A DNA stretch of 60,673 bases from contig CAZSKP010000029.1 in the NCBI GenBank assembly GCA_964607485.1, positions 1 to 60,673 on the forward strand, written 5' to 3'. A program made the position numbers and the translations under genes. Of the stretch, positions 3,882 through 27,344 are shown piece after piece. The stretch's first letter is position 1, and each line of letters opens with the position of its first letter. A model generated the notes under the pieces. It was not told where the DNA came from. It searched no databases and saw only the letters and a list, made by a program, of their open reading frames with translations. Source of the stretch: an uncultured bacterium. GTDB taxonomy: Bacteria; Abyssobacteria; SURF-5.

Positions 3882-3910
3882 TTGCACCGCAGAGAGGTGT
3901 ATGATAGAAT
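3882..3910 (+). promoter_or_regulatory. sigma70-type promoter of the rpsF operon
   Basis: TTGCAC-N17-TAGAAT with TG extended -10. Confidence 0.7.
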
Positions 3911-3916
3911 ACAACC

Positions 3917-3958
3917 CAGCTAGCGGGGCCGAAGGGACCCGCATCCGGAGGTGAGATT
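3917..3958 (+). promoter_or_regulatory. Probable S6:S18 autoregulatory leader
   Basis: Hairpin gcgggGccGAAGggAcccgc next to the SD (CCGGAGG) of rpsF, at the position typical of the S6:S18 leader; not model-tested. Confidence 0.4.
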
Positions 3959-4264
3959 TTGAATAGGTACGAAGTGCTGTTCGTGATTCGGCCCGACGCG
4001 GCAGAGGAGACGGTCGCCGAGGTAACCGAAAAGGCGCAGGAACAGGTGACGCGCAACGGAGGCATCATTCTCGCGCTCGAAAACTGGGGGCGCAAGAAAC
4101 TCGCATACGAGATAAGCCGCTTTACCGAAGGCATTTATGTGAAAATGGACTTCGAGGCGTCGGGCGACGTCGTTGACAAGCTGGCCCGACATTTCACGCT
4201 CAGTGAGGATGTAGTTCGTCATCAGACCATACATCAGACGGACAGGAAATCGGCCGCAGGCTGA
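3959..4264 (+). CDS. rpsF: 30S ribosomal protein S6
   Basis: RYEVLFVIRPD and WGRKKLAYEI motifs; TTG start. Confidence 0.97.
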   Translation: MNRYEVLFVIRPDAAEETVAEVTEKAQEQVTRNGGIILALENWGRKKLAYEISRFTEGIYVKMDFEASGDVVDKLARHFTLSEDVVRHQTIHQTDRKSAAG

Positions 4265-4278
4265 GAGGAACCGCCGCG

Positions 4279-4722
4279 ATGTCGCAGCTCAGCATGATAG
4301 AGGTCAACAAGGTCTTCCTCGCAGGGAGACTCACGCAGGACCCCGAGCTCCGCTACACGCCCTCCGGCGCGGCGGTGACAACCCTGCGAATGGCCGTTAA
4401 CACGACCTACTGGAGTAAAGACAGCGAAAAACGCGAAGAGGTCTGCTACGTAAACGTGAACGTGTGGCAGAAACAGGCAGAGAAGTGCGTCGAATACCTG
4501 AGCAAGGGGAGGCCCGTATTCATCGAAGGCCGCTTGCAGAGCAGGCAGTGGGAAGCACAGGACGGCCAGAAGAGGACAAGCATCGAAGTCAATGCGAATA
4601 GGGTTCAGTTCATGGACTGGAGCGGAGAGCGGGATGAAACCACGCCTTCCCGCGGCAAGGCTTCCGCGCGTCCGCCGGAATCGTCCCCCGGACCGGAGGA
4701 GTCGGACGATATCCCCTTCTGA
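4279..4722 (+). CDS. ssb: Single-stranded DNA-binding protein
   Basis: NKVFLAGRLTQDPELRYT; C-terminal DDIPF. Confidence 0.97.
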   Translation: MSQLSMIEVNKVFLAGRLTQDPELRYTPSGAAVTTLRMAVNTTYWSKDSEKREEVCYVNVNVWQKQAEKCVEYLSKGRPVFIEGRLQSRQWEAQDGQKRTSIEVNANRVQFMDWSGERDETTPSRGKASARPPESSPGPEESDDIPF

Positions 4723-4771
4723 CAAGGAGACAGACGTTCGCGAAGTGGCGTCATACCAAGGAAAGGAATAA

Positions 4772-5008
4772 ATGGCAAAGCCAAGAAGAACCTTTGGGCG
4801 CAGGAAAATCTGCCGCTTTTGCGCCGACAAAGTGCCAGCGGCGGACATCAACTACAAGGATGTCCAGAGGCTGAAACACTACACCACGGAGCGCGGAAAG
4901 ATTATTCCCCGCAGGATTTCGGGCGCCTGCGCGAGACATCAACGAGCCCTGAGCAAGGCCATCAAGCGCTCACGCATGGTGGCGCTTATGCCCTTCACCG
5001 CCGATTAA
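4772..5008 (+). CDS. rpsR: 30S ribosomal protein S18 (zinc-binding form)
   Basis: [29 protein letters not shown]. Confidence 0.97.
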
Positions 5009-5211
5009 TCTCTTGCTGCGCATCATGTCAACGCGTTCTGTCGGGGCTTTCCTACGCGCTCGGAGACGTACATAGGGGGCGGTGGCGATTCACCCACGGG
5101 CCGTTGGCTTACGCATCCAACCTCGTTGAAGCTGGTCCCCGAGGATTTCGCTGGAACGCAAACTAGGCGGGCGGGTATCTCTTCCCGCCAACGCTTCTGA
5201 AAGGAAGGCCG

Positions 5212-5655
5212 ATGAAGGTCATACTTCGAGAAGAGGTAAAGAGGCTGGGCAAGCCCGGCGACGTGGTCGAGGTCAAGGACGGCTACGCTCGCAACTACCT
5301 GATTGCACGCAATCTCGCCGTCAGGGCCGACGCGGGCCGCCTAAGACAGCTCGAGCACGAAAGGAAGGTCCTTCGCGACAAGAAGGAAAAGGTGCTCAAG
5401 GAAGCAAGAATGCTCGCCGAGGAGATAAGCAAGACCTCGTGCACCATCTCGGTGCAGGTGGGGGAAGAAGACAAGCTGTTCGGTTCCGTCACCGCCATGG
5501 ACATAGCAGAATCCCTCAGCAAGGAGGGCGTGGAGGTCGACAAGAGAAGCATCCATCTGGAGGAACCGATCAAGTCGTTGGGTGTGTTCAGCGTCCCCGT
5601 CAAGATCATGCCCGACGTGGAGGCCAAGCTGAAGGTCTGGGTGGTAAAGGAATAA
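5212..5655 (+). CDS. rplI: 50S ribosomal protein L9
   Basis: MKVIL...LGKPGDVVEVKDGYARNYL and KLFGSVT. Confidence 0.97.
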   Translation: MKVILREEVKRLGKPGDVVEVKDGYARNYLIARNLAVRADAGRLRQLEHERKVLRDKKEKVLKEARMLAEEISKTSCTISVQVGEEDKLFGSVTAMDIAESLSKEGVEVDKRSIHLEEPIKSLGVFSVPVKIMPDVEAKLKVWVVKE

Positions 5656-5714
5656 CTTGACCGAAACCTGTGCGGCGCTGTCTGTAACGAGCAACTGCCC
5701 CTGAGGGGATTCAC

Positions 5715-7115
5715 GTGGCCACAAAAGAGACATCTCCTCCCACGAAGGTACCTCCCCACAACCGCGACGCCGAGCAGAGCGTTCTGGGAGCGATGCTTTT
5801 CGACGAACGCGCAGTCGGCCAGAGCATCGAGAAACTGCGCGACTATCACTTCTACGACGAGGCGCACCGCCGGATATTTCGGGCAATAGTTGACCTGTAC
5901 AACGAGAGCTCGCCCATCGACCTCATTAGTGCTTCCGACAGACTGCGCAGGAGCGGCGAGCTCGAATCCGTCGGGGGCGCCACGTACCTCGCCCAGCTCC
6001 TCGACATGGTTCCCACCGTCGCCCACGTCGACTACTACTCCCGAATAGTGCTTGAGAAGGCCTGGCTCAGGGAACTGCTGACGGCGGCGACGGAAACCAT
6101 GACCGACGCTTACGGCGAAGGCCCCGACGTCGAGGAGGTGCTCGACAGGGCGGAGAAGCGAATATTCGACATCGTTGAGCGCCGAATCGTTACCTCGATC
6201 ACGCCGGTGGGAGAATTGGTGCATCCGGTGTTCCAATGGGTCGATGACCTGTACAACGACCGGCGCGAGGTCACGGGCACTCCCACGGGCTTCATCGATT
6301 TGGACCTCAAGCTTCGGGGTCTCCAGAAATCCGACCTCATCATCGTGGCTGGCAGGCCGTCGATGGGGAAGACGAGCTTCGCCCTCAATATCGCCGAACA
6401 CGTCGGCATCAGGGAGAAGAAAGCAGTCGCCATTTTCAGCCTTGAGATGGGCAAAGAGCAGCTTGTCCTCAGGATGCTCTGCTCCGAGGCGGCGCGCGAG
6501 GTCTCAAGAGAGAATATCAGCCTGAGCGGCCTCCAGACAGGCTACTTCGGCAGCAACCTTTATCCCGTGCTGACGGACGCCGCCGGCCGGCTCGCGCAGT
6601 CCAACATCTTCATCGACGACTCGCCCACGCTTTCCGCCATGGAAATCAGAGCCAAGGCACGAATGCTTAAGGCGCGGAAACAGCTCGACCTGATCGTCAT
6701 CGATTACCTGCAACTCATGGAAGAGAGCGGCAGGCGGGCGGAGAACCGGCAGCAGGAAATCGCTATGATTTCCCGACACCTGAAGGCACTGGCGCGCGAA
6801 CTCGAGGTGCCCGTGATCGCGCTCTCACAGCTCAGCCGCGCCGTTGAGCGGCGCGAGGAGAACCGCCCGCAGCTCGCCGACCTGCGCGAATCGGGCGCGA
6901 TCGAGCAAGATGCCGACGTCGTGCTCATGCTTTACCGCGAGGAGTACTACTGGCGTTTGCAGAACCCGAGCAAGGACCCCGGAGAAAACCTCTTGAACAA
7001 AGCCGAGGTGATTGTGGCCAAGCAGCGCAACGGACCGACCGGTGTGATCGACCTCAATTTCTTCGGCGACCAGGTGCGGTTTGAAAGCCGGACGAAGCAG
7101 ACCGAGCCGTTCTGA
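5715..7115 (+). CDS. dnaB: Replicative DNA helicase
   Basis: PPHNRDAEQSVLG, GRPSMGKT Walker A, IVIDYLQL, LSQLSR, DLRESGAIEQDAD, KQRNGP; no intein. Confidence 0.98.
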   Translation: MATKETSPPTKVPPHNRDAEQSVLGAMLFDERAVGQSIEKLRDYHFYDEAHRRIFRAIVDLYNESSPIDLISASDRLRRSGELESVGGATYLAQLLDMVPTVAHVDYYSRIVLEKAWLRELLTAATETMTDAYGEGPDVEEVLDRAEKRIFDIVERRIVTSITPVGELVHPVFQWVDDLYNDRREVTGTPTGFIDLDLKLRGLQKSDLIIVAGRPSMGKTSFALNIAEHVGIREKKAVAIFSLEMGKEQLVLRMLCSEAAREVSRENISLSGLQTGYFGSNLYPVLTDAAGRLAQSNIFIDDSPTLSAMEIRAKARMLKARKQLDLIVIDYLQLMEESGRRAENRQQEIAMISRHLKALARELEVPVIALSQLSRAVERREENRPQLADLRESGAIEQDADVVLMLYREEYYWRLQNPSKDPGENLLNKAEVIVAKQRNGPTGVIDLNFFGDQVRFESRTKQTEPF

Positions 7116-7164
7116 TGAATGAGTTGAGCGAGGGAAAACTGAGCAGCTTATAAAGGAGATCGTT

Positions 7165-8040
7165 ATGTTTACAGGTTCAATGGTGGCGCTCGTGACCCCT
7201 TTCAAAAACGGCAAGGTGGACGAAGCCAAGATTCCCGAGCTTGTCGAGTTTCAGCTCAGCAGAGGCACAAGCGTCATCTGTCCGTGCGGCTGCACCGGCG
7301 AGGCCGCGACCCTGAACCACGACGAGCAGATTCGAATCATACAGATCGTCGTCGAGACGGTTGCGGGAAGAGCGAACGTGGTCGCCGGCACTGGCTCTAA
7401 CAGCACAGAGGAGGCTCTCCAGCTCACGCGACGTGCAAAAGATGTGGGCGTGGACGGAGCACTGATGATCACGCCGTACTACAACAAACCCACCCAGCGC
7501 GGGCTCCGGACTCACTACGAGAAGATAGCCACCTCGGTCGACCTGCCTATCATGCTGTACAACGTCCCCGGCCGGACGAGCGTGAACATGCTCCCCGAGA
7601 CCGTGGCCGAACTCTCCCAGACCGAAAACATCGTCGCCATCAAGGAAGCCAGCGGTAACCTGGACCAGGTAAGCGCAATACTGAACCTCTGCGACATCAA
7701 CGTGCTCTCGGGCGACGACTCGCTCACGCTGCCGATGCTCGCAATCGGGGCGAAGGGAGTCGTCAGTGTGGCTGCCAACGTCGCGCCCGCCGAAGTAGCG
7801 GCACTCATAGACAGCTTCAACAGTTGCAACATGGACGAGGCTCAGCGGATACATTATCAGTTGCTGCCGTTGTTTAAAGTGTTGTTTTGCGAGACTAATC
7901 CTATTCCCGTGAAGCGGGCGCTGAGCTTGATGGGAATGATCGAAAACGAGCTCAGGCTCCCGCTTGTTCCCCTTTCTGCGGAAAATGAGCCCAAGTTGAG
8001 GGCAGTGCTCGAGAAGCTGGGGTTGTTGGAATTGGTGTAG
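7165..8040 (+). CDS. dapA: 4-hydroxy-tetrahydrodipicolinate synthase
   Basis: ALVTPF, GCTGE, TPYYNKP, LYNVPGRT, IKEASG, ETNPIPVK. Confidence 0.97.
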   Translation: MFTGSMVALVTPFKNGKVDEAKIPELVEFQLSRGTSVICPCGCTGEAATLNHDEQIRIIQIVVETVAGRANVVAGTGSNSTEEALQLTRRAKDVGVDGALMITPYYNKPTQRGLRTHYEKIATSVDLPIMLYNVPGRTSVNMLPETVAELSQTENIVAIKEASGNLDQVSAILNLCDINVLSGDDSLTLPMLAIGAKGVVSVAANVAPAEVAALIDSFNSCNMDEAQRIHYQLLPLFKVLFCETNPIPVKRALSLMGMIENELRLPLVPLSAENEPKLRAVLEKLGLLELV

Positions 8041-8055
8041 GGTGGAGGCCCCGAA

Positions 8056-8862
8056 GTGGCATTGAGAATCGGTGTGTTTGGTGCGTGCGGCCGGATGGGT
8101 CGGCGGATAGTCGAGCTTGCCAGCCGTGACAAGGACTTCGAGGTGAGGGCTGGAATCGAGTATCCCGGCCATCCCGCCGTCGGCCAGCCCCTCGGAGCTC
8201 TGTTCGGAATCCCCGACCTGAATGTGACGCTTGTGGAAAGCGTGCACAAGGTGCTCAACGACGTCGAATGCATCATCGCGTTTGCGACACCCGAGGCGAC
8301 TCTTGACTGCATGCGCGACGTTCACGCCGACCGAAAAGCGTTCGTCATCGGGACGACCGGTTTCAGCCCTGAGCAAGTGGAGGAAATCAAGCGTCTGAGC
8401 CAGCATGTTCCGTGCCTGATGTCCGCGAACATGAGCATCGGCGTCAACACGCTGCTGGCTCTCTCGAAGCGGATAGCGAAGGTCTTGGGCGACAATTTCG
8501 ACGTGGAGATTGTGGAGGCGCACCACAATCAGAAGCGCGATGCACCCAGCGGCACCGCGCTTATGCTCGGCGAGGCCATCGCCGAGGCCACAAACCGCAC
8601 ACTCATCGACAACGTTACGTATGGAAGAGAGGGGATTGTCGGGCCGAGGCCGAAGAACGAAATAGGCATCCACGCAGTCCGCGGCGGAGACATCGTCGGC
8701 GACCATACCATCATCTTTGCCGGTCAGGGTGAGCGCATCGAGATAACCCACCGCGCCCACAGCCGCGACAACTTCGCGCGAGGAGCCCTCCTGGCCGCCA
8801 AGTTCATCGTCCGCCAGCCCGCCGGACTCTACACGATGCAGGACCTCCTGAAGCTCACGTGA
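8056..8862 (+). CDS. dapB: 4-hydroxy-tetrahydrodipicolinate reductase
   Basis: GACGRMG, IGTTG, EAHHNQKRDAPSGTA. Confidence 0.97.
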   Translation: MALRIGVFGACGRMGRRIVELASRDKDFEVRAGIEYPGHPAVGQPLGALFGIPDLNVTLVESVHKVLNDVECIIAFATPEATLDCMRDVHADRKAFVIGTTGFSPEQVEEIKRLSQHVPCLMSANMSIGVNTLLALSKRIAKVLGDNFDVEIVEAHHNQKRDAPSGTALMLGEAIAEATNRTLIDNVTYGREGIVGPRPKNEIGIHAVRGGDIVGDHTIIFAGQGERIEITHRAHSRDNFARGALLAAKFIVRQPAGLYTMQDLLKLT

Positions 8863-10406: not shown

Positions 10407-10919
10407 TCAGGCGGTCACGGAGAGCAGGCGGGAATTGTTGGCGAGTTGCCTTAGGGTGGAGTGCCGGGACCCATTGCCGTTTCCGTCGTCGCGACTGTTG
10501 GCGGGGGCTGCGTCGGCCAATGCCTTCTCGAAGTCGATCTCGGCCCATGCCGACCGCAGGTTTTGAAGGATATCGAGCACGTTGTCGAGTAGGCGCATCT
10601 CCTTGGTGAAGTTCACCTCAATCAATCGTCCGATCATGTACACGTACAGACGCTGCAGATTCTTTGCGACTTCTCCTCCCTCCTCCATTTTCAGGATCCG
10701 GAGCAGCTCGGTTACGATGTCGCGGGCCCTCACGATCGACTTGTAGCTTCTAACGTAGTCTTTCTGTTCAATCGAATCCTTGGCTTCGGAGGCGAACTTA
10801 ATTGCTCCGTCGTAGAGCATGAGTATGAGGTCTTTTTGACTGAGGCCGTTGATGTGTTCCTCCCGGTAGCACTTTGCCGCCTTCGCGGAAACTATATCGC
10901 CCTTGCGCTCCTCGACCAT
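10407..10919 (-). CDS. fliS: Flagellin export chaperone FliS
   Basis: LILMLYDGAIKF, GGEVAKNLQRLYVYM, LRSAW. Confidence 0.94.
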   Translation of the reverse strand: MVEERKGDIVSAKAAKCYREEHINGLSQKDLILMLYDGAIKFASEAKDSIEQKDYVRSYKSIVRARDIVTELLRILKMEEGGEVAKNLQRLYVYMIGRLIEVNFTKEMRLLDNVLDILQNLRSAWAEIDFEKALADAAPANSRDDGNGNGSRHSTLRQLANNSRLLSVTA

Positions 10920-10944
10920 TTTTCCCCTTCCCCCTGCTGCAATA

Positions 10945-13257
10945 TTAGCCGTTATTCCTTCTCGTGAGCGTGTTTGTCAGAGGCAGGTTCTGAAGCTGTT
11001 GTATGAGAAAATCACCTTGCGAGGTGAGTGATGCCAACGAGGCCTCCAGCCGTGCGAAATCCGAGAGCAGCGATTGTCTCTTCTCTTCAAGCCGCTCATT
11101 CATACTTTCGATGTCAGAGTCGAGATCGTCTATCTGACGCGTGAGCGTGTCCGTCCGAGTGGTTACACGTCCATCGACGGGGTGTGTCAGGAAGCCTAGC
11201 TGGTCATTCAGGCGCGCACCGAGGCCGTCGATGACGGTCACCACGCCTTCGGACTCAGAGGAGTTCACCTCCGATGGGGTCAGCGTCACGAGAAGCGCCA
11301 GGCCGTCGGTCGTCGCGTTGCCCGCGTTTCCCGTGAGAGTCTGTCCGCTGCCTGTCGCGGGTTCTCCGTTGATTGTCCCGGCCACGTCCTGGCCCGAGGT
11401 GGCGACCGCTGCCGTAAGACCCAGCGTTGCGAACGCGCTGTTTTCGGGCTCAGAGCCCAACTGGACCGATGACGAGGACCCGTAACTGGATGATGTGAAG
11501 AGCAGCCGCCCGCCGGAGAATTCGACCGAGACATGTTTTCCGGCGAGTTGTGGGTCGGCGCTCAACTGTGCCTGTAATGCGGCCGCCAAGTCGTCGCCCG
11601 TGTTGTAAGTCTGCGCTGACAACGTCAGCACAGAACTCTCCTGGCCGTCCACCCTCAGGCGTATCTGGTTGTCGCTGGTAGTGAGTGTTATCGGAAAGCT
11701 GCCTAAAGCAGCGCCCTCAAGCGTGCCTCCCGTGGCGGCGGTAGTGATGTCGACCGCGAACCCGGAACTACTCAAGATGGTCTTGTCGCTCGAGGTAAGA
11801 TACGTGATATCTGGGTTTGTCGTTGTGAAGCTCGTGGAGAAGAGGTCCGCGACCCCCTCCAGGTTCGCCGCGAGCGCTCCATCGAGTTTCGCGTCGTTGA
11901 TGACGAGCTTTCCGGTCTCGGCGACCGATGTTACGCCGATGGCCGCGAGGCGGTTCATGTCCGTGGGCAAGCCGGGGACAACGCCGGTCGCTATTCGCCT
12001 CATATCGTTCTGCACGCTCATCAGCAGCGAGTCGCCGAGCAGCAGGCCTCCTTCTTGCGTAACGGGGTCATACCGAAGCTGCTCGTTCAGAAAATCGATG
12101 ACTTGGTTGTACGATTCGACGAATCCCTCTATCGCCCCCCGCACGTCCTCGGTGTCGTTTGAGACGGAAATCCTCACTGACGTAGCCGCGTCCGCCCCCA
12201 GGAGGTTCAGCGTGACCCCGGGAACGACGCCAGTGACCGTGTTCGTGGCGGACTTTATCGTGATGGGCGCTCCGCCGCCGGAACTGCTGCCCAGGGTGAG
12301 AGAGGCGTCCTGCGCCGCCTGTGTGGTCGGGACGAACGTGTCTATCCTGAAACGATCTCCGGCGGTGAGCGTGCCGCTGTCGGTGAACGCGATGGACACC
12401 CCGTCCTCCAGAAGCGTTCCGCCGGTGGCGGTCAGGAATCCGGCTCCGCCGTTGTCGTCGAACGTCAGGCCGCCGTCGGTCGAGAAGCGGAACGTGGCTG
12501 CGCCGACCGCGCCGTCCGACATTATCTCCACGATGAACGTCTGGTTTTCGGCTCCCGTGTATGTCCCCAGGGATGAGGCGGTGCCGGTGTAGGAGGAGCT
12601 GTTGCTCGCGTCCGCCTCAGCCGCGTCGATGTTGTTGTTGACAAAATCGGGCGCCTTTCCGCCCGTGAGGCTGACCGTCACATCTACCGTGTTTGCAGCG
12701 CCCGTGACCGTGCTGGTCAATAGCAGCCGGTAAGGGTTCGAGGCACTGCCGTCGTTAACGATGGCTGCCGTGACATCTGCGCCTGAACTGTTGATCGCGT
12801 CTCTCAGACCAGCCAGTGTGTTGTTTCCTGCGTCGATTTCTATCTCAGTAGTTGCTCCCGAGCCGACCCGGATGGTAACCGTGCCGACGCCAATGCTCGT
12901 CGTGTCCGTATCCGCGAAGCCCTGTGAGGCCAACTGGTGAGCCTGTGCAAGCTGGTTGACCCTAATAAAGTGAGTGCCGGGGGCCGCATTGCCGGTGACG
13001 GAAGCCGATAGGAGGGACTCGTGGCTGGAGGTGACAGTCTGTGTCTGGAAATTCTTCTGTTTGGATAGAGTCGTCGCCGAAGCCTTAAGACCGAGGAGAA
13101 GCCCGTTGAAGCTCTGTATGGCCGTCAGCTTCGCGGTCTCATCGGTCTTTTTCGTCGACACAAGGTCTATTCGGCGCTGCTCCGCAGCGACTATGGTGTC
13201 TATGATAGACTGCCAGTCGATTCCCGAGTATATTCCAGAAAAATATATGTCACCCAT
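10945..13257 (-). CDS. fliD: Flagellar filament cap protein (long, 770 aa)
   Basis: FSGIYSGIDWQSIID N-terminus, VNQLAQAHQLAS, AQDA, VPGVTLNL, FVESYN, C-terminal coiled coil ending FARLEA. Confidence 0.95.
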   Translation of the reverse strand: MGDIYFSGIYSGIDWQSIIDTIVAAEQRRIDLVSTKKTDETAKLTAIQSFNGLLLGLKASATTLSKQKNFQTQTVTSSHESLLSASVTGNAAPGTHFIRVNQLAQAHQLASQGFADTDTTSIGVGTVTIRVGSGATTEIEIDAGNNTLAGLRDAINSSGADVTAAIVNDGSASNPYRLLLTSTVTGAANTVDVTVSLTGGKAPDFVNNNIDAAEADASNSSSYTGTASSLGTYTGAENQTFIVEIMSDGAVGAATFRFSTDGGLTFDDNGGAGFLTATGGTLLEDGVSIAFTDSGTLTAGDRFRIDTFVPTTQAAQDASLTLGSSSGGGAPITIKSATNTVTGVVPGVTLNLLGADAATSVRISVSNDTEDVRGAIEGFVESYNQVIDFLNEQLRYDPVTQEGGLLLGDSLLMSVQNDMRRIATGVVPGLPTDMNRLAAIGVTSVAETGKLVINDAKLDGALAANLEGVADLFSTSFTTTNPDITYLTSSDKTILSSSGFAVDITTAATGGTLEGAALGSFPITLTTSDNQIRLRVDGQESSVLTLSAQTYNTGDDLAAALQAQLSADPQLAGKHVSVEFSGGRLLFTSSSYGSSSSVQLGSEPENSAFATLGLTAAVATSGQDVAGTINGEPATGSGQTLTGNAGNATTDGLALLVTLTPSEVNSSESEGVVTVIDGLGARLNDQLGFLTHPVDGRVTTRTDTLTRQIDDLDSDIESMNERLEEKRQSLLSDFARLEASLASLTSQGDFLIQQLQNLPLTNTLTRRNNG

Positions 13258-13275
13258 CCCGGTTCCCTCTGTTTA

Positions 13276-13662
13276 TCATCCGCTTTCGTCAAGGAGGATA
13301 CCGACAATGTTGCGTATCTTCGCGTAAACGTCCAGCAGCTCTTGGGGAGGAATCTGACGAATGACTTCACCGTGTTCGTCGAGCACCTGAACCGCCGACC
13401 GTCCGCTGGCCTCGTCGTGAATGAAGTTGAGGCTGCTTCCGATTTCGCTCAGGTACTTGTTGATTCCGTCAAGAGTGCTCTCCATCTCAGCAGCGTCCAT
13501 TTCAACAGCATCCGCCCCAGCGAGCGTTTGCGGCGCAACGGACGCAAACTGAGATGTCGCTGGCGGGCTGCTTCCAACTCGACGGGCAGTACTGACACCG
13601 GACGTAGTTCCAGCAGCCGGGTCAAGGCCTGGGTAGCCTGCCTGATCAACTCTGATGCCCAT
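13276..13662 (-). CDS. flaG: Flagellar protein FlaG
   Basis: VQVLDEHGEVIRQIPPQE...VGILLD; between fliC and fliD. Confidence 0.92.
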   Translation of the reverse strand: MGIRVDQAGYPGLDPAAGTTSGVSTARRVGSSPPATSQFASVAPQTLAGADAVEMDAAEMESTLDGINKYLSEIGSSLNFIHDEASGRSAVQVLDEHGEVIRQIPPQELLDVYAKIRNIVGILLDESG

Positions 13663-13743
13663 TAGGTTACACCTCCTTGGGGCACATGAACCGGGCGGTG
13701 TGTCCGCCCGATTTTAGTCCCCAATCGGGCCGTTAGGCCAAAG

Positions 13744-15534
13744 TTACCCCAGCAACTGAAGCACCGTCTGCGGAATTGCATTCGCCTGCGCCAATACTGA
13801 GACACCCGCTGATAGGAGTATCTGGTTCCTTGTGAATTCGCTTACTTCCGACGAGATGTCCACGTCTCTGATCGTGCTCTCAGAAGCGGACAGGTTCTCC
13901 TCGGCGATTCTGAGTGAGCGCAGATTCGTCTCCAGCGTATTCTTCTGGAACGCGCCCAGTCTTGCGCGCAGCCTGGAAATCTCGTCGGTCCCCTGGTCTA
14001 TCAGCAGGACGGCGTCGTTTGCGCCCTGCACCGTGGTGATGTCGAGGTCTTCCAGACTGGTGAAGTTGCTCTTGTTGACTATGCCCCGCGCGAGCTTGTC
14101 GGCCGAGATATCCTGAGCGGATATCCTGACGACCTGGTTCGGATTCGGTCCGACCTGGAACTGAATCGAGTTGTCAACGACCGAAATCGTGGCGGAGCTG
14201 TCCGTCGCCGGAACGTTGAAGAACCCGAAGCTGATATCCAATGTTCCGATCGCGTTGCCCTGCGAGTCCTGGCCGGCGCTGAGTGTCTTGGTTTCACCCG
14301 AGGTGACGGCCATTTTGGGACCCGCGCCGAGCTGCACGTCGAACGTGGCCGGAGTGACTTCCACGTTCAGAGTCTCGCCGTCTATGAGGTTCTGCGTGGT
14401 GAACGCTACCTCAAACGTAAGTGTGAGCGAGGCTCCGCTGGCGTCGCTGACCACGAACTCCGTCGTGCCCGAAGCGAGCCTAAGGATGTCACCGTCGTCG
14501 AGCTGAACACCGACGTTCTGGCCGTTGGCGGCGGTCACCGTAGCGGCGGCGAACCCATACTCCTGGGCAGTCGCTGCGTCCGCGAATGTGATGGTGATAG
14601 TCTGTGCCGCCCCGACCGCCGTGTTGTTGCTGTCGATGGCGATCGAGTACGTGCCGTCGCCGTTGTTGACCGCGATGAATTGGTCGTTGTTCACCAGGTC
14701 GCGGGCCTCGGCGTTTATCTCAGCCACGATGTTAGCGACGGTGTTAGCTTCGTCGCCCTCGAAGACCACCGTGCTCGTGCCCGAGGCCGATGCGAGGGTG
14801 ATAGTCGTCGCCGTGAGTGTGCTGTTCCCGTCGAGTACCGCCGAGGTGGACGAAGTCGCATAGGCGCCCGTGGCTTCAGTCACCACAAGCGAGTGCGAGC
14901 CTCCCGCCAGTCCGTCGGGGTCTCCGTCGGCGCCTGTGCCTGCCAGCGCCACATTGTCAAGCAGGTCGAACGGATCGGAAGTGATCGTCGCGCCTGCCTG
15001 AGTTATGTTGCTGACGTTTATGGTGTAGGTGCCGGTGCGGAGGGTGCTCTCGGCAAGATTCGTCAGGCCGATCGTGTTCAGGCTCGTCAGGCTGACCACG
15101 TTCTCGAACGTGCCGTCCAGCAAGGTCTGGATGCTGAACTGTGCGGTGTCAGAGATACGGGTTATCGTCTGAAGAGCGTTGGAGAGTTCCGCCTGGTCCG
15201 CCGCGAGCGATGTCGCGTTGTTGATGCCGGAATTGGCTGCGTCGAGAGCCAGTTCCCGCATGCTGATCAGCAGCGAGTTCACCTCGTTCAGACTACCCTC
15301 AATCGTCTGCACGAGGTTGACCGCCCGCTCGGAATTCACGATTGCCGCGTTCAGACCGGCAATCTGCGCCCTGAGCTGTTCCGATATGGCCAGACCAGCA
15401 GGGTCGTCGCCCGCAGTGTTGATCCGCAGGCCTGAGGACAACCTCTGCACCGACTTGAACAGCCTGGCATCGGCCAGCGTCAGGTTCCTTTGGGCGGTTA
15501 TCGCCGTGACATTGGTGTTGATGCGTAAACCCAT
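13744..15534 (-). CDS. fliC: Flagellin (596 aa, Ser/Thr-rich variable region)
   Basis: RINTN, RLSSGLRIN..DDPAGLAIS, FQVGPN, RARLGAFQ, ESTIRDVD, VLAQAN..LQLL. Confidence 0.97.
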   Translation of the reverse strand: MGLRINTNVTAITAQRNLTLADARLFKSVQRLSSGLRINTAGDDPAGLAISEQLRAQIAGLNAAIVNSERAVNLVQTIEGSLNEVNSLLISMRELALDAANSGINNATSLAADQAELSNALQTITRISDTAQFSIQTLLDGTFENVVSLTSLNTIGLTNLAESTLRTGTYTINVSNITQAGATITSDPFDLLDNVALAGTGADGDPDGLAGGSHSLVVTEATGAYATSSTSAVLDGNSTLTATTITLASASGTSTVVFEGDEANTVANIVAEINAEARDLVNNDQFIAVNNGDGTYSIAIDSNNTAVGAAQTITITFADAATAQEYGFAAATVTAANGQNVGVQLDDGDILRLASGTTEFVVSDASGASLTLTFEVAFTTQNLIDGETLNVEVTPATFDVQLGAGPKMAVTSGETKTLSAGQDSQGNAIGTLDISFGFFNVPATDSSATISVVDNSIQFQVGPNPNQVVRISAQDISADKLARGIVNKSNFTSLEDLDITTVQGANDAVLLIDQGTDEISRLRARLGAFQKNTLETNLRSLRIAEENLSASESTIRDVDISSEVSEFTRNQILLSAGVSVLAQANAIPQTVLQLLG

Positions 15535-15538
15535 TTTT

Positions 15539-15770
15539 CATCCTCCTTGATGCGCGCGCGCTCAACCCAGATGAGCGCCGCCGTTGCGCGGGCCTCCTTG
15601 CCCGCAAGCCAACTTTTCCAGGTATTGGCCTCGACCTCGGATCATTTTTCAGGTCGGATCCGACGACCGTTCAACCAGGGACAATTTCCACGTTGCCCCC
15701 GGCACTCTCCAAATGTATCCGCGGACGCGCGGGAGATACTTCGCGCGCACGCCACCTCTGTTTCTCCTTG
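15539..15770 (-). promoter_or_regulatory. fliC 5' leader with multiple CsrA-type GGA hairpin loops
   Basis: gcgggc-AAGGAG-gcccgc (15588-15605) and catc-AAGGAG-gatg over the SD (15539-15552), plus further GGA-loop hairpins at about 15608-15629 and 15678-15700. Confidence 0.7.
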
Positions 15771-15773
15771 CTT

Positions 15774-15800
15774 ATATCGGCACGATGGGCGAAATCTTTA
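15774..15800 (-). promoter_or_regulatory. sigma28 (FliA/SigD) promoter of fliC
   Basis: Minus strand TAAA-N15-GCCGATAT, matching the consensus. Confidence 0.9.
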
Positions 15801-24052: not shown

Positions 24053-25189
24053 ATGGCCATACGTGCCGACAAGAATAAATCGGCTGCGCAACTGGACGGG
24101 CCTCGCGTCCTGCGCCCAGAGGAACGTCGCTCGGCCTTAGACCTCATCAACTCGGCCCTCCGTCCGAACGGTCCATCCACGATTCTCAAGGAATATCCGC
24201 TGGTCCTGGGTAAGGGCAACCTCCACAACATGCGCGTCGTCGTTAAAGGAAGAGAGGTGCTTTCGCACGCGGCGCTCTATTTCTCAAAATTGCGGTCGAG
24301 GGACATCGTGTTCGACGTCGGTGGAGTCGGGTCGGTAGCGACGCACCCAGAATATCGGGGCCGCGGCCTGGCCAGCGCCGTGATCAGGGACTGTGTCAGT
24401 ATTATGAAGGAATCCCATTGTCACCTCTCGGTTCTCTGGACACAGAGACACGATTTCTATAGAAAGCTCGGGTACGAAGCCGCGGGCTCCGAGTATCTGT
24501 TCCGGGCGAGAGCGTCGGATTTCGCCCACGTCTCACGCGACTGCAAAGTTGTTCCCTATTCGCGCCGCCGACTGTCGGCCATAATCGAAATACACGAGCG
24601 CGAAACCCTGCGCACGGAGCGGACGAGGAAACAATACGAGACCTATCTCGGGATTCCGAAAACAAAAACTCTGCTCGCCATGCGAGGGAACGCCGTCACC
24701 GCGTATGCCGTCATGGGCAAGGGCGAGGATTTCGGCAACTGCATTCATGAATGGGGCGGCAACGCAGGAGACCTGCTCTCTCTTGTGCGCGAGTTTACCT
24801 CGTCGTCCAGCTCTGGCGAAATCATGATTCTTGCACCGGCGCAAGAGAATGAGTTCACCCGTCTCCTCCGGCGAATGCGACTGACGGAGATGTTCGAATA
24901 TCTGGCGATGATGAGGATAATCGACCTAGAGAGCCTTTCGTCCCTCCTACATAACTGTCTGAGCCCCCGGCTTGGAGGGGAATTTCGAGTGTGGCGGAGC
25001 GCGTCGGGATTGATGATGAAGGCCGGAGCGGAGGAAGCGAAGGTCGAGCAGGAACAGAAACTCGTGCGAGTTCTGTTCGGGCCGGAGCCGGCCTCAAGCC
25101 TGCTTGGCGGATTTTCGCCTCAAACCCTTCGAGCGCTCGACGGCGCGCTGCCGATTCCGTTGTTCATCTGGGGACTCGACTCGGTCTGA
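24053..25189 (+). CDS. GNAT-family N-acyltransferase (Eis-like, tandem GNAT)
   Basis: VGSVATHPEYRGRGLAS motif A, FYRKLGY, C-terminal FIWGLDSV; start reassigned to MAIRAD (the longer ORF overlaps the upstream gene). Confidence 0.85.
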   Translation: MAIRADKNKSAAQLDGPRVLRPEERRSALDLINSALRPNGPSTILKEYPLVLGKGNLHNMRVVVKGREVLSHAALYFSKLRSRDIVFDVGGVGSVATHPEYRGRGLASAVIRDCVSIMKESHCHLSVLWTQRHDFYRKLGYEAAGSEYLFRARASDFAHVSRDCKVVPYSRRRLSAIIEIHERETLRTERTRKQYETYLGIPKTKTLLAMRGNAVTAYAVMGKGEDFGNCIHEWGGNAGDLLSLVREFTSSSSSGEIMILAPAQENEFTRLLRRMRLTEMFEYLAMMRIIDLESLSSLLHNCLSPRLGGEFRVWRSASGLMMKAGAEEAKVEQEQKLVRVLFGPEPASSLLGGFSPQTLRALDGALPIPLFIWGLDSV

Positions 25190-25371
25190 TCTCGCATCGC
25201 TCGAAATCTGTCGCGGGCATTCCGCCTGCTTTCGCGTCTGCGCCTCTTCCTTCTTCCGAACGACAACGGGGTAAGTGCACGCACGCGACTTCATATCAAT
25301 TGAAACGCTGGCAAGAAAAGTGTTGCTTCGGAGGGAGCATGGGCAGGATGATGAACGTGCAACCATGTCCC

Positions 25372-25479
25372 TAAAGGAGAGGAGGCTGGGTGCCACCCCA
25401 AACACCCAGCCCGATGAGGAGAAAGATGTCTGTGGATCGCTATGCGATCCATCTGCCCGTGTAGCAGACAAACATCGAG
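25372..25479 (-). ncRNA. Candidate sigma54-dependent small RNA
   Basis: Begins about 12 nt downstream of a sigma54 promoter. Folds by eye into a three-way junction, a single-stranded UUUCUCCUC, and a GC-rich hairpin with a CU-rich tail; no credible ORF. Confidence 0.55.
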
Positions 25480-25489
25480 CGGATATTAG

Positions 25490-25505
25490 AGCAATTCCTG
25501 TGCCA
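25490..25505 (-). promoter_or_regulatory. sigma54 (-24/-12) promoter
   Basis: Minus strand TGGCACAGGAATTGCT = TGGCAC-N5-TTGC(T) with exact spacing. Confidence 0.8.
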
Positions 25506-26104
25506 CAATATGTTGTCCGACCATCTGGGGGTGGTTCAAGATTATCCATGAACCTGAAAGATTACCGCAGAGCGCTTCGGTCCCCTCGCGCGGAAATGGA
25601 GCCGAGTCAACCAATTAGCGGGAAGCATTCCGATAAAGTCAATCAAGCTGGTTGTAAATCGCCTTTTCCGTTAATTTACATGGAACACAGCAAGCTGGCG
25701 CGTCTTCAATAGCCCAAAAAGTGTTTAATGAAACATATTAAAGCGTTTCAAGTGTTTCATAACCGTTTCAAATGAACGATGCCGCCGCGGATTAGGTGTC
25801 AATGAAAACAGCATTTCTGGGGGAAAAGAGTGGCCACAAACGCATATGTTATGCGCAAAGAGACTTCCGGTGAGAACGGCCGCACGCGGAGTTGCAGTTT
25901 GTCGGTGGGTGAAAATGGCCATGGGTTCATAGTCAAGCAGAACCGGGTGTCTCTTCTCCAATCTCACGCAATCCTCCAGCCCTCTTCCTTCATCTTCTTC
26001 TGTAAGCGGTTTCATTTATCCAGCTGAGATCGTCATCTTCTTCTCGGAGCGCCTCATTCTCTCATTCTCCCAATGGTGCGTGCAGGCCCAATCCCGCTGC
26101 GAAC

Positions 26105-26134
26105 TTGACATTGCGCGTCAAGATGTTATAGATT
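26105..26134 (+). promoter_or_regulatory. sigma70-type promoter for the acyl-CoA dehydrogenase operon
   Basis: TTGACA followed by TGnTATAGA/TAGATT; overlapped by the inverted repeat CTTGAC-N7-GTCAAG (possible operator). Confidence 0.5.
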
Positions 26135-26189
26135 CTAACCACCCGCCAAGCGTTGTGGTCAATCACCTCAAAGAGAATCGGGAGGAATC

Positions 26190-27344
26190 GTGGGAAAAAG
26201 ACATCCCATCTTCACAGAAGAGCACCAGATGCTCCGCCGCTCGGTCAGAAGTTTCGTCGAGAAAGAACTTGCCCCGCACGCGGACCAATGGGAGAAACAG
26301 GGCGGCTTTCCCCATCGGGAGGTATTCAAGCGGCTGGGAGAACTCGGCTTCCTCGGCATCGACATCCCGGAGGAATACGGGGGTTCGGACGCCGGCTTCG
26401 TCGCCACCGTCGTCTTCGCCGAGGAGATTGCCCGGTGCAACTCGAGCGGTGTCGGCGCATCCATCGGTCTGCACGCGAACATCGCGCTCCCGTACATCGC
26501 CGACCTGGGAACCGAGGAGCAGAAACAGAAATACCTGGCGCCGGGGGTAAGGGGAGAGCTCATCGGCTCCCTGGGCGTGACCGAGCCGGGCGCAGGTTCC
26601 GATGTCGCCTCGATCAGAACCAATGCCGTCCGAGACGGCGACAGCTACGTCATCAACGGCAGCAAGATGTTCATCACCAACGGTGGAATCGCGGATTACG
26701 TCATCCTCGCCACGAAGACCGAGAAAGAGAAGGGTCACGAGGGAATCAGCATGTTCCTCGTCGACAGGGGCGCGCCCGGCTTTACGGTCAGCCGCGACCT
26801 CGACAAGCTCGGGTGGCGTTCGTGCAACACCGCGGAACTCGCGTTCGAGGACGTCCGCGTTCCCGTGAGCGCGATGCTCGGAGATGAAGGGCAGGGGTTT
26901 TATAACATAATGATTCATTTTCAGGAGGAGCGGCTCTATATGGGTGTCGGCGCCGTGTGCGAGGCCCAGCGAGCGCTTGACCTCGCCCTTGAGTACTCGA
27001 AGGAGCGCGTTCAGTTCGGCCGGCCGATAGCCAAATTTCAGGTCACCCGTCACAAGATAGCCGACATGGCGACCGAGATCGAGGCTGCGAGACAGCTCGT
27101 CTACAACACCATCCGGATGCACATCGAGGAGGAGCCCTGCCAGGTGGAAGTCGCCATGTGCAAATTGTTCGCCTGCGAAATGGCCAACCGGGTAATAAAT
27201 CAGGCGCTCCAGATTTTCGGCGGCTACGGCTACATGATGGAATACCCGATACAGCGCCTGTGGCGCGACTCGCGCATAGGCACTATCGGCGGTGGTACCT
27301 CGGAGATACAACGCGAAATCATCGGCCGGTTGCTCCTGCAATGA
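26190..27344 (+). CDS. Acyl-CoA dehydrogenase
   Basis: TEPGAGSDVA, INGSKMFITNG, RVQFGRPI, QIFGGYGY, IGGGTSEIQR. Confidence 0.96.
   Translation: MGKRHPIFTEEHQMLRRSVRSFVEKELAPHADQWEKQGGFPHREVFKRLGELGFLGIDIPEEYGGSDAGFVATVVFAEEIARCNSSGVGASIGLHANIALPYIADLGTEEQKQKYLAPGVRGELIGSLGVTEPGAGSDVASIRTNAVRDGDSYVINGSKMFITNGGIADYVILATKTEKEKGHEGISMFLVDRGAPGFTVSRDLDKLGWRSCNTAELAFEDVRVPVSAMLGDEGQGFYNIMIHFQEERLYMGVGAVCEAQRALDLALEYSKERVQFGRPIAKFQVTRHKIADMATEIEAARQLVYNTIRMHIEEEPCQVEVAMCKLFACEMANRVINQALQIFGGYGYMMEYPIQRLWRDSRIGTIGGGTSEIQREIIGRLLLQ

Follow-up and report, generated by a model that had tools for sequence, protein, structure and literature searches.

A probable sigma-54-type small RNA gene with candidate anti-Shine–Dalgarno tracts in an uncultured bacterium

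What does an exact sigma-54 promoter drive when it points into an intergenic gap that holds no credible open reading frame (ORF)? The question is raised by contig CAZSKP010000029.1 of assembly GCA_964607485.1, which comes from an uncultured bacterium of the GTDB lineage Abyssobacteria (SURF-5) and whose 60,673 nt were analysed as one stretch (hereafter, the window). In a gap of 1,000 bp (25190..26189), the promoter is followed on the minus strand by what is likely a stand-alone regulatory small RNA (sRNA) gene of about 105–108 nt (approximately 25480 to 25373), whose C/U tracts would pair with Shine–Dalgarno (SD) regions. Taken as a whole, the locus is probably a genuine, conserved sRNA gene of the sigma-54 type that represents a new family. 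The evidence has been obtained in silico and comprises the promoter match, the fold, the absence of a coding signal, the conservation of the promoter and of a 3′ module, and the accessibility of the C/U tracts.

The promoter TGGCACAGGAATTGCT occupies positions 25505..25490 of the minus strand and matches the −24/−12 consensus exactly. It is the sole match to TGGCAC-N5-TTGCW on either strand of the 60,673 bp, where shuffled sequence leads one to expect 0.04 (at least one match appeared in 4 of 100 shuffles). Allowing one mismatch adds no further sigma-54 site in the window (1 found, 1.60 expected). The distance between a sigma-54 promoter and its transcription start follows a spacing rule, and by this rule the start is predicted at 25480–25479 on the minus strand, 11–12 nt past the −12 GC (25492–25491) and 3–4 nt before the first stem of the predicted RNA.

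The RNA read from this start is predicted to fold with unusual stability. For the 108 nt from 25480 to 25373 on the minus strand, the minimum free energy (MFE) is −49.1 kcal/mol (z −4.77), a value equalled by none of 200 shuffles, and the MFE structure accounts for 30% of the ensemble. The plus strand of the same region reaches only −39.6 kcal/mol (z −3.43). Since the minus strand is thus more stable by 9.5 kcal/mol, G–U pairs favour the strand read from the promoter, and the orientation of the RNA agrees with the direction of the promoter. In the MFE fold, four free nucleotides at the 5′ end precede a three-way junction (25425..25476), which consists of a closing stem and two hairpins with zero unpaired nucleotides at the junction itself. 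The closing stem of 8 bp, GAUGUUUG/CAGACAUC, pairs 25476–25469 with 25432–25425; the first hairpin, UCUGCU/GGCAGA, has 6 bp (25468–25452), and the second, UGGAUCGC-AUA-GCGAUCCA, is a perfect hairpin of 8 bp (25451–25433). The 5′ domain is followed by the first C/U-rich tract, UUUCUCCUCAUC (25424–25413), a candidate anti-SD seed whose 12 nt are unpaired with a probability of 0.99. A terminator-like hairpin of 12 bp with a 6-nt loop comes next (25412–25383). The second C/U-rich tract, CCUCCUCUCCUUU (25373..25385), is a candidate for both a second anti-SD seed and the terminator tail; its last 10 nt, CCUCUCCUUU (25382–25373), form the 3′ tail and are unpaired with a probability of 0.92.

Conservation of the locus could be followed by an indirect route: protein databases were searched with the chance ORFs that run across it, ORFs of this kind being deposited there at times by gene callers. 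The ORF in the sense frame retrieved P0005 (171 aa; 1 match among 35 candidates), the antisense-frame ORF retrieved P0006 (86 aa; 1 among 64), and a 58-aa antisense piece retrieved P0007, P0006, and P0008 (3 among 3). A 51-aa sense piece compared with 1.84 billion representatives gave three matches at E up to 0.001, including P0011 (146 aa). The other two, long and repetitive (20 matched stretches in 2819 aa and 6 in 1195 aa), were set aside as low-complexity. The five relatives that remain are independent metagenomic “hypothetical proteins”, all singletons, from contigs of 870–4,061 nt, and none of them contains a Pfam domain. What they share with the window is a 3′ module of 57 nt (25429..25373, minus strand) comprising the first tract, the terminator-like hairpin, and the second tract. 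The sense-frame translation of 25373..25430 is TSFSSSGWVFGVAPSLLSF, the antisense one KERRLGATPNTQPDEEKDV. In the sense frame, P0005 is identical at 19/19 residues and P0011 at 18/19, while in the antisense frame P0006, P0007, and P0008 each match at 19/19. Directly outside the module, similarity collapses in P0005, P0006, P0008, and P0011; the 5′ domain is divergent among the relatives apart from the close relative P0007, which keeps it and has its differences between −12 and +3 and past the end of the tail. In every relative, the sequence diverges downstream, and conservation stops exactly where the tail ends (25373). As a side observation, P0005 continues beyond the module with 87 protein-like residues (85–171) that have no Pfam match, and its genomic context differs from that of the window.

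The promoter is kept together with the module. Upon back-translation, a site compatible with TGGCAC-N5-TTGCW lies upstream of the module on the correct strand in all five relatives, whereas shuffled relative proteins yield 0.0755 such sites per protein, counting both strands. The distance from TGG to UCUUUC is nearly constant, being 79 nt in the window and in P0007, 78 in P0008, 77 in P0006, and 75 in both P0005 and P0011. The residues that cover the promoter are, on the sense strand, CGTGIAL in the window, WHSNCS in P0005, and WHTNCT in P0011; on the antisense strand, AIPVP in the window and P0007, SNNCAS in P0006, and EQFLCH in P0008. Its frame relative to that of the module thus varies, the indels between promoter and module are not multiples of three, and gene callers picked opposite strands in the contigs of different relatives. 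Since neither the frame nor the strand in which promoter and module are read is constant, the constraint appears to act on the nucleotides and not on a protein. A second compatible promoter inside the module of P0005 and P0011 was rejected as an artefact of degeneracy. The window itself has a second TGGCAC there (25390–25395, minus strand), in the loop of the conserved hairpin and its 3′ arm and followed by N5-CTCC; to judge from its lack of a −12 element it is not a promoter, and its presence inside the invariant module is probably a coincidence.

Support for the three-way junction comes from a single divergent relative, P0011, and, trivially, from P0007. No gaps are needed to align the window with P0005 and P0011 from the codons of the first hairpin onward, and when P0011 is threaded on the structure of the window, 22 of its 22 base pairs can be satisfied. 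Controls in which the 3′ partners were slid by 1–3 columns allowed only 12–17 of 19–22 pairs, and shuffling the residues gave a mean of 14.4 pairs with a maximum of 19 (0/200 reached 22). All eight pairs that the genetic code fixes on both sides are canonical in P0011, and two of them are double compensatory changes, U–A to A–U in the closing stem and C–G to U–A in the second hairpin. The only difference of P0011 within the module, V to A, corresponds to a U-to-C change in the terminator stem that faces an A at the wobble position of an Ala codon; a compensating G is possible at this position, which the translation does not reveal.

No ORF in the gap has the character of a protein gene. Three ORFs cross or adjoin the locus, one of 151 aa on the minus strand (25549..25094), one of 145 aa on the plus strand (25275..25712), and one of 96 aa (25725..26015, minus strand). 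The G + C content at third codon positions (GC3) is 0.52 and 0.45 in the two minus-strand ORFs versus approximately 0.7–0.8 in the real genes of the window, and a Pfam search with the three ORFs gave no match. Because of the low GC3, the absence of Pfam matches, and the conservation that crosses frames and strands, the predicted RNA locus is non-coding. Nor does it coincide with a known RNA: Rfam 15 gave no match in the whole window at the gathering score, and of the five weak matches obtained at E up to 10 between 24900 and 26300 (snoRNA-like or pemK, all below gathering) none overlaps 25373..25505. In a limited full-text literature search no published description of the RNA was found, and the terms sRNA, small RNA, and non-coding do not occur in a cross-phylum sigma-54 regulon survey of 2025 (PMC12316311). 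The first-pass annotation of this DNA had described an exact minus-strand sigma-54 promoter facing no credible ORF, a three-way junction with one perfect hairpin, then an unpaired tract, a further hairpin, and a tail, with anti-SD seeds in an RNA as yet unannotated. This description is borne out, with every structural part lying in the MFE fold where it had been placed. Its expectation that promoter and structure are conserved was pursued indirectly and agrees with the compatible promoter and the 3′ module in five of five relatives and with the junction in P0011.

How might such an RNA act? We infer its transcription, termination, action in trans, and targets along the following lines. Sigma-54 RNA polymerase would start at the −24/−12 promoter after activation by an enhancer-binding protein, which would bind candidate sites 125–290 bp upstream. 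One such candidate enhancer (upstream activating sequence) is the imperfect palindrome ATGAAACA-N17-TGTTTCAT (25728..25760), which precedes the predicted start by about 240 bp. It lies in an AT-rich stretch (25720–25780; GC ~0.38) that also contains three direct TGAAAC repeats (25728–25774). This stretch could be the enhancer of the sigma-54 promoter, or else the acyl-CoA dehydrogenase operon could have its operator there. The other is a direct repeat, TTGATTGACT / TTGGTTGACT (25605..25646, minus strand; 32 nt from start to start), located approximately 125–165 bp upstream of the start, a second candidate activator site. In the transcript, the variable three-way junction would probably be a stabilising scaffold, while the near-invariant 3′ module would present UUUCUCCUCAUC and CCUCUCCUUU on either side of the strong hairpin, and the same hairpin would end the transcript. 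As the 5′ domain is variable and the 3′ module that exposes the tracts is invariant, the tracts are taken to be the working part of the RNA. Their CUCCU/CCUCC sequences may pair with the purine-rich SD regions of several mRNAs and thus block ribosome binding. Occlusion of the ribosome-binding site (RBS) is the simplest reading because the genome uses leaders of the GGAGG type, the exact complement of CUCCU/CCUCC, as the leaders in the window indicate. In a crude duplex ranking of the tracts against 48 leaders in the window, the H+-pyrophosphatase (−22.8 kcal/mol) and an enoyl-CoA hydratase (−20.8 kcal/mol) came out on top.

Several results weigh against this reading. As the relatives are known as protein translations only, the shared wobble position hides one nucleotide in three, and a few promoter positions in each relative are wobble positions; the conservation of the promoter accordingly means compatibility at every observable position rather than identity. 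No syntenic copy was found. Of 16 candidate stretches in a scan of genome contigs by way of the adjacent GNAT gene, two loci resulted, L001, a metagenome-assembled genome (MAG) of Candidatus Poribacteria whose GNAT protein is 58% identical and whose downstream gene differs, and L002, whose GNAT protein is 67% identical and whose contig ends within the GNAT gene; the sigma-54 promoter pattern is absent from both, and neither shows similarity to the gap. In L001, a 1,454-aa ORF (3890–8254, plus strand) follows the GNAT homologue in place of the gap, so the GNAT neighbourhood is not conserved. Among the ORFs scanned in the 60-kb window there is no rpoN and no Sigma54_activat gene. The terminator-like stem has 7 GC pairs among its 12 bp, the tail CCUCUCCUUU contains 5 U in 8, and since a generic terminator scan of the region finds no more sites than shuffles do (2 versus 2.2 expected), the terminator call alone is not above chance. 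Structure in P0005, P0006, and P0008 is also less clear. In register, P0005 satisfies 17 of the 22 pairs, and 39 of 200 shuffles do as well (by eye, a 1-nt shift restores the second hairpin and a closing stem of 5 bp, which is not counted as evidence). Best-case codon choice followed by MFE folding had no power for four relatives, in which 15, 12, 8, and 12 of 22 shuffles were as good. A free search for three-way junctions failed even on the back-translated window, its positive control (for which 20 and 25 of 150 shuffles did as well), so that its figures for P0011 (4/150) and for P0005, P0006, and P0008 (79, 109, and 88 of 150) are equally powerless. Finally, the best-ranked partners are merely the leaders with the longest GGAGG-type sequence, and the seed pairing is thus generic.

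Could the same observations be explained otherwise? A real sigma-54 sRNA might use its C/U tracts to titrate a pyrimidine-binding protein (Hfq-like, S1-like, KH, or cold-shock-type) and not to pair with SD sites. Both tracts and the hairpin are kept as one 57-nt block, which is more than a seed of 8–10 nt needs, and the pairings within the window include no specific extended target, no extended complementarity to either tract being found elsewhere in it. However, no known protein-binding motif and no repeated GGA-type motifs were recognised, and the tracts are exactly complementary to the GGAGG leaders of this genome; titration is regarded as unlikely. Somewhat less probable is a more far-reaching idea, in which the 3′ module would be a decoy of the mRNA-binding end of the ribosome and hence a brake on translation. 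The 3′ end of 16S rRNA carries a CCUCC core and a pyrimidine tail, and an RNA ending in ...CCUCCUCUCCUUU-3′ would copy both, with a second CUCCU tract upstream; in response to a sigma-54 signal, such an RNA would compete with the 30S subunit for SD sites genome-wide. The variable junction domains would then mark a family of sibling RNAs that differ in the partner or stability signal to which each is adapted.

The remaining explanations dispense with an sRNA that acts in trans. The 3′ end of the convergent GNAT gene lies 290 nt ahead of the promoter, which might mainly drive antisense or read-through transcription into the GNAT/glycosyltransferase operon, interfering in cis, with the hairpin as an attenuator or processing site. 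The U-poor tail would suit this arrangement, as would the result of the terminator scan, in which no plus-strand terminator was found past the GNAT gene. Conservation that ends exactly at 25373, with downstream sequence diverged in every relative, speaks against it, and it leaves unexplained why an invariant 57-nt module recurs in different flanks; we give it a small chance, slightly below that of the decoy. The possibility that the locus encodes a small protein or its leader draws on the frames that are open on both strands, namely a 53-aa ORF (25452..25291), the 86-aa tail of the ORF 25549..25094, or the TSFSSSGWVFGVAPSLLSF frame; in the TSFSSS frame the wobble positions of the relatives are not observed, so purifying selection on a peptide is formally possible. 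Yet it is very improbable, given a GC3 of 0.52 where genes have 0.7–0.8, no SD sequence before any start, no Pfam match, unrelated sequence past the 19 conserved residues in every relative, and gene calls on opposite strands across contigs with spacing indels that are not multiples of three. Least probable of all is a chance promoter beside a chance hairpin, both functionless, or an element that acts as DNA, for instance a small mobile repeat. An exact promoter does turn up in 4 of 100 shuffled windows, many windows were scanned in the first-pass annotation, and the relatives lie on short contigs, but chance would hardly keep promoter, spacing, and 57-nt module jointly in five sequences with diverged flanks, and a mobile repeat is not indicated either, as there is no second copy of the locus in the window, L001, or L002 and no blastn match in a plasmid collection.

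Is the likely sRNA gene then connected with its genomic surroundings? The window is chromosomal and belongs to an anaerobe-type bacterium, with genes for an H+-pyrophosphatase, pyruvate:ferredoxin oxidoreductase, a multihaem cytochrome, and ribosomal proteins. The gap is flanked by the gene of the GNAT acetyltransferase (Acetyltransf_9; 24053..25189, plus strand) on one side and by that of the acyl-CoA dehydrogenase (26190..27344, plus strand) on the other. Apart from the 96-aa ORF and a sigma-70-like promoter, TTGACA-18-TAGATT (26105–26134, plus strand), upstream of the acyl-CoA dehydrogenase gene, the remainder of the gap (25800–26189) contains no recognisable feature. Further away, fliS, fliD, flaG, and fliC are located on the minus strand (10407..15534). 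Beyond fliC, a sulfotransferase gene, three TPR/GT2 genes, and the GNAT gene follow; the products encoded between 15928 and 25189 are a sulfotransferase, a TPR protein, a 1,525-aa protein in which four GT2 stretches are combined with many TPR repeats, a GT2-TPR protein, and an Eis-like GNAT. This island is probably a flagellin-modification cluster of unusual size.

The first-pass annotation had placed the sRNA at the edge of the flagellar island, and the locus does lie at its far edge, 10 kb from fliC. The proposal that flagellar leaders such as those of fliC and flaG are the targets fared less well. In the ranking of 48 leaders, FliS, FliD, FliC, and FlaG take the 11th, 12th, 14th, and 33rd places, and fliC has an exact promoter of the sigma-28 type, TAAAG-N14-GCCGATA (15800..15775, minus strand; 1 found, 0.12 expected), approximately 240 nt before its ATG. 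Because of this promoter and of ranks in seed pairing that are not high, a functional tie of the predicted sRNA to flagella is not supported. The long leader of fliC (15535–15775) contains two AAGGAGG motifs, which might be sites for control of the CsrA/FliW type.

How does the predicted RNA compare with known systems? The Qrr RNAs of Vibrio are encoded by stand-alone genes, each with its own sigma-54 promoter activated by LuxO; the siblings share an invariant segment with variable remainders and act by base pairing. The locus described here resembles them in being a stand-alone gene with a sigma-54 promoter and in combining an invariant segment with a variable remainder. However, the conserved segment of Qrr is not known to be an anti-SD tract, Qrr RNAs rely on Hfq and have a U-rich terminator tail, the Rfam search gave no sequence or structure match to Qrr here, and the organism is not a Vibrio. 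GlmY/GlmZ and Pxr of Myxococcus are also transcribed from sigma-54 promoters, GlmY acting by protein mimicry and GlmZ as an activator of its target; in sequence and structure they are unrelated to the present RNA, as judged by the lack of an Rfam match (models for Qrr, GlmY/GlmZ, alpha-r14, and Pxr are presumably part of Rfam). To our knowledge, sigma-54-dependent sRNAs are known only from a handful of cultured proteobacterial lineages. The present candidate comes from an uncultured lineage, and the nearest genome match of its GNAT neighbour is the Candidatus Poribacteria MAG at 58% identity. If confirmed, it would establish a new RNA family with an unusual layout, in which a variable three-way junction is joined to an invariant dual anti-SD/terminator module, and would provide a handle on the output of a sigma-54 regulon in that lineage. 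It would also mean that protein databases, by way of ORFs called in error, can reveal the conservation of sRNAs where nucleotide collections are lacking.

In the proposed mode of action, the predicted RNA comes close to NfeR1/alpha-r14 of Sinorhizobium and other alpha-rhizobia, which silences mRNAs by RBS occlusion through redundant anti-SD seeds in unpaired regions (PMC10746234). Both RNAs have ultraconserved C/U-rich anti-SD motifs that are unpaired, with stems variable in sequence (PMC10746234). Of the NfeR1 motif CCUCCUCCC, the first 7 nt (CCUCCUC) occur in the 3′ tract here, and the full 9-mer is absent. NfeR1 has three hairpins, each with the motif (PMC10746234). The fold here also has three hairpins in total (two in the junction and one terminator-like), but two different tracts flank a single hairpin and neither is in a loop, so the alpha-r14 layout is not found; the 5′ three-way junction has no counterpart in alpha-r14/NfeR1, and the NfeR1 promoter lacks the signature of sigma-54 (PMC10746234), unlike the promoter here. 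CJnc230/FlmE of Campylobacter jejuni is an RpoN-dependent sRNA of ~98 nt near flagellar genes that binds RBSs and represses translation, and RNase III releases it from the flgE mRNA at the 3′ end (PMC11187230). The present RNA differs in having its own predicted promoter, no co-directional upstream minus-strand gene in the gap, and no indicated flagellar target. The sigma-54 regulome of Desulfovibrio vulgaris comprises four non-coding RNAs behind sigma-54 promoters with dedicated activators (PMC4641369); these RNAs, too, belong to a free-living, anaerobe-type genome, and no Rfam family matched the present RNA. Although the predicted RNA appears to belong to no known family, since it has no Rfam match, lacks the alpha-r14 layout, and is not mRNA-derived like FlmE, it would work in the manner of the sigma-54 sRNAs and of the anti-SD sRNAs alike.

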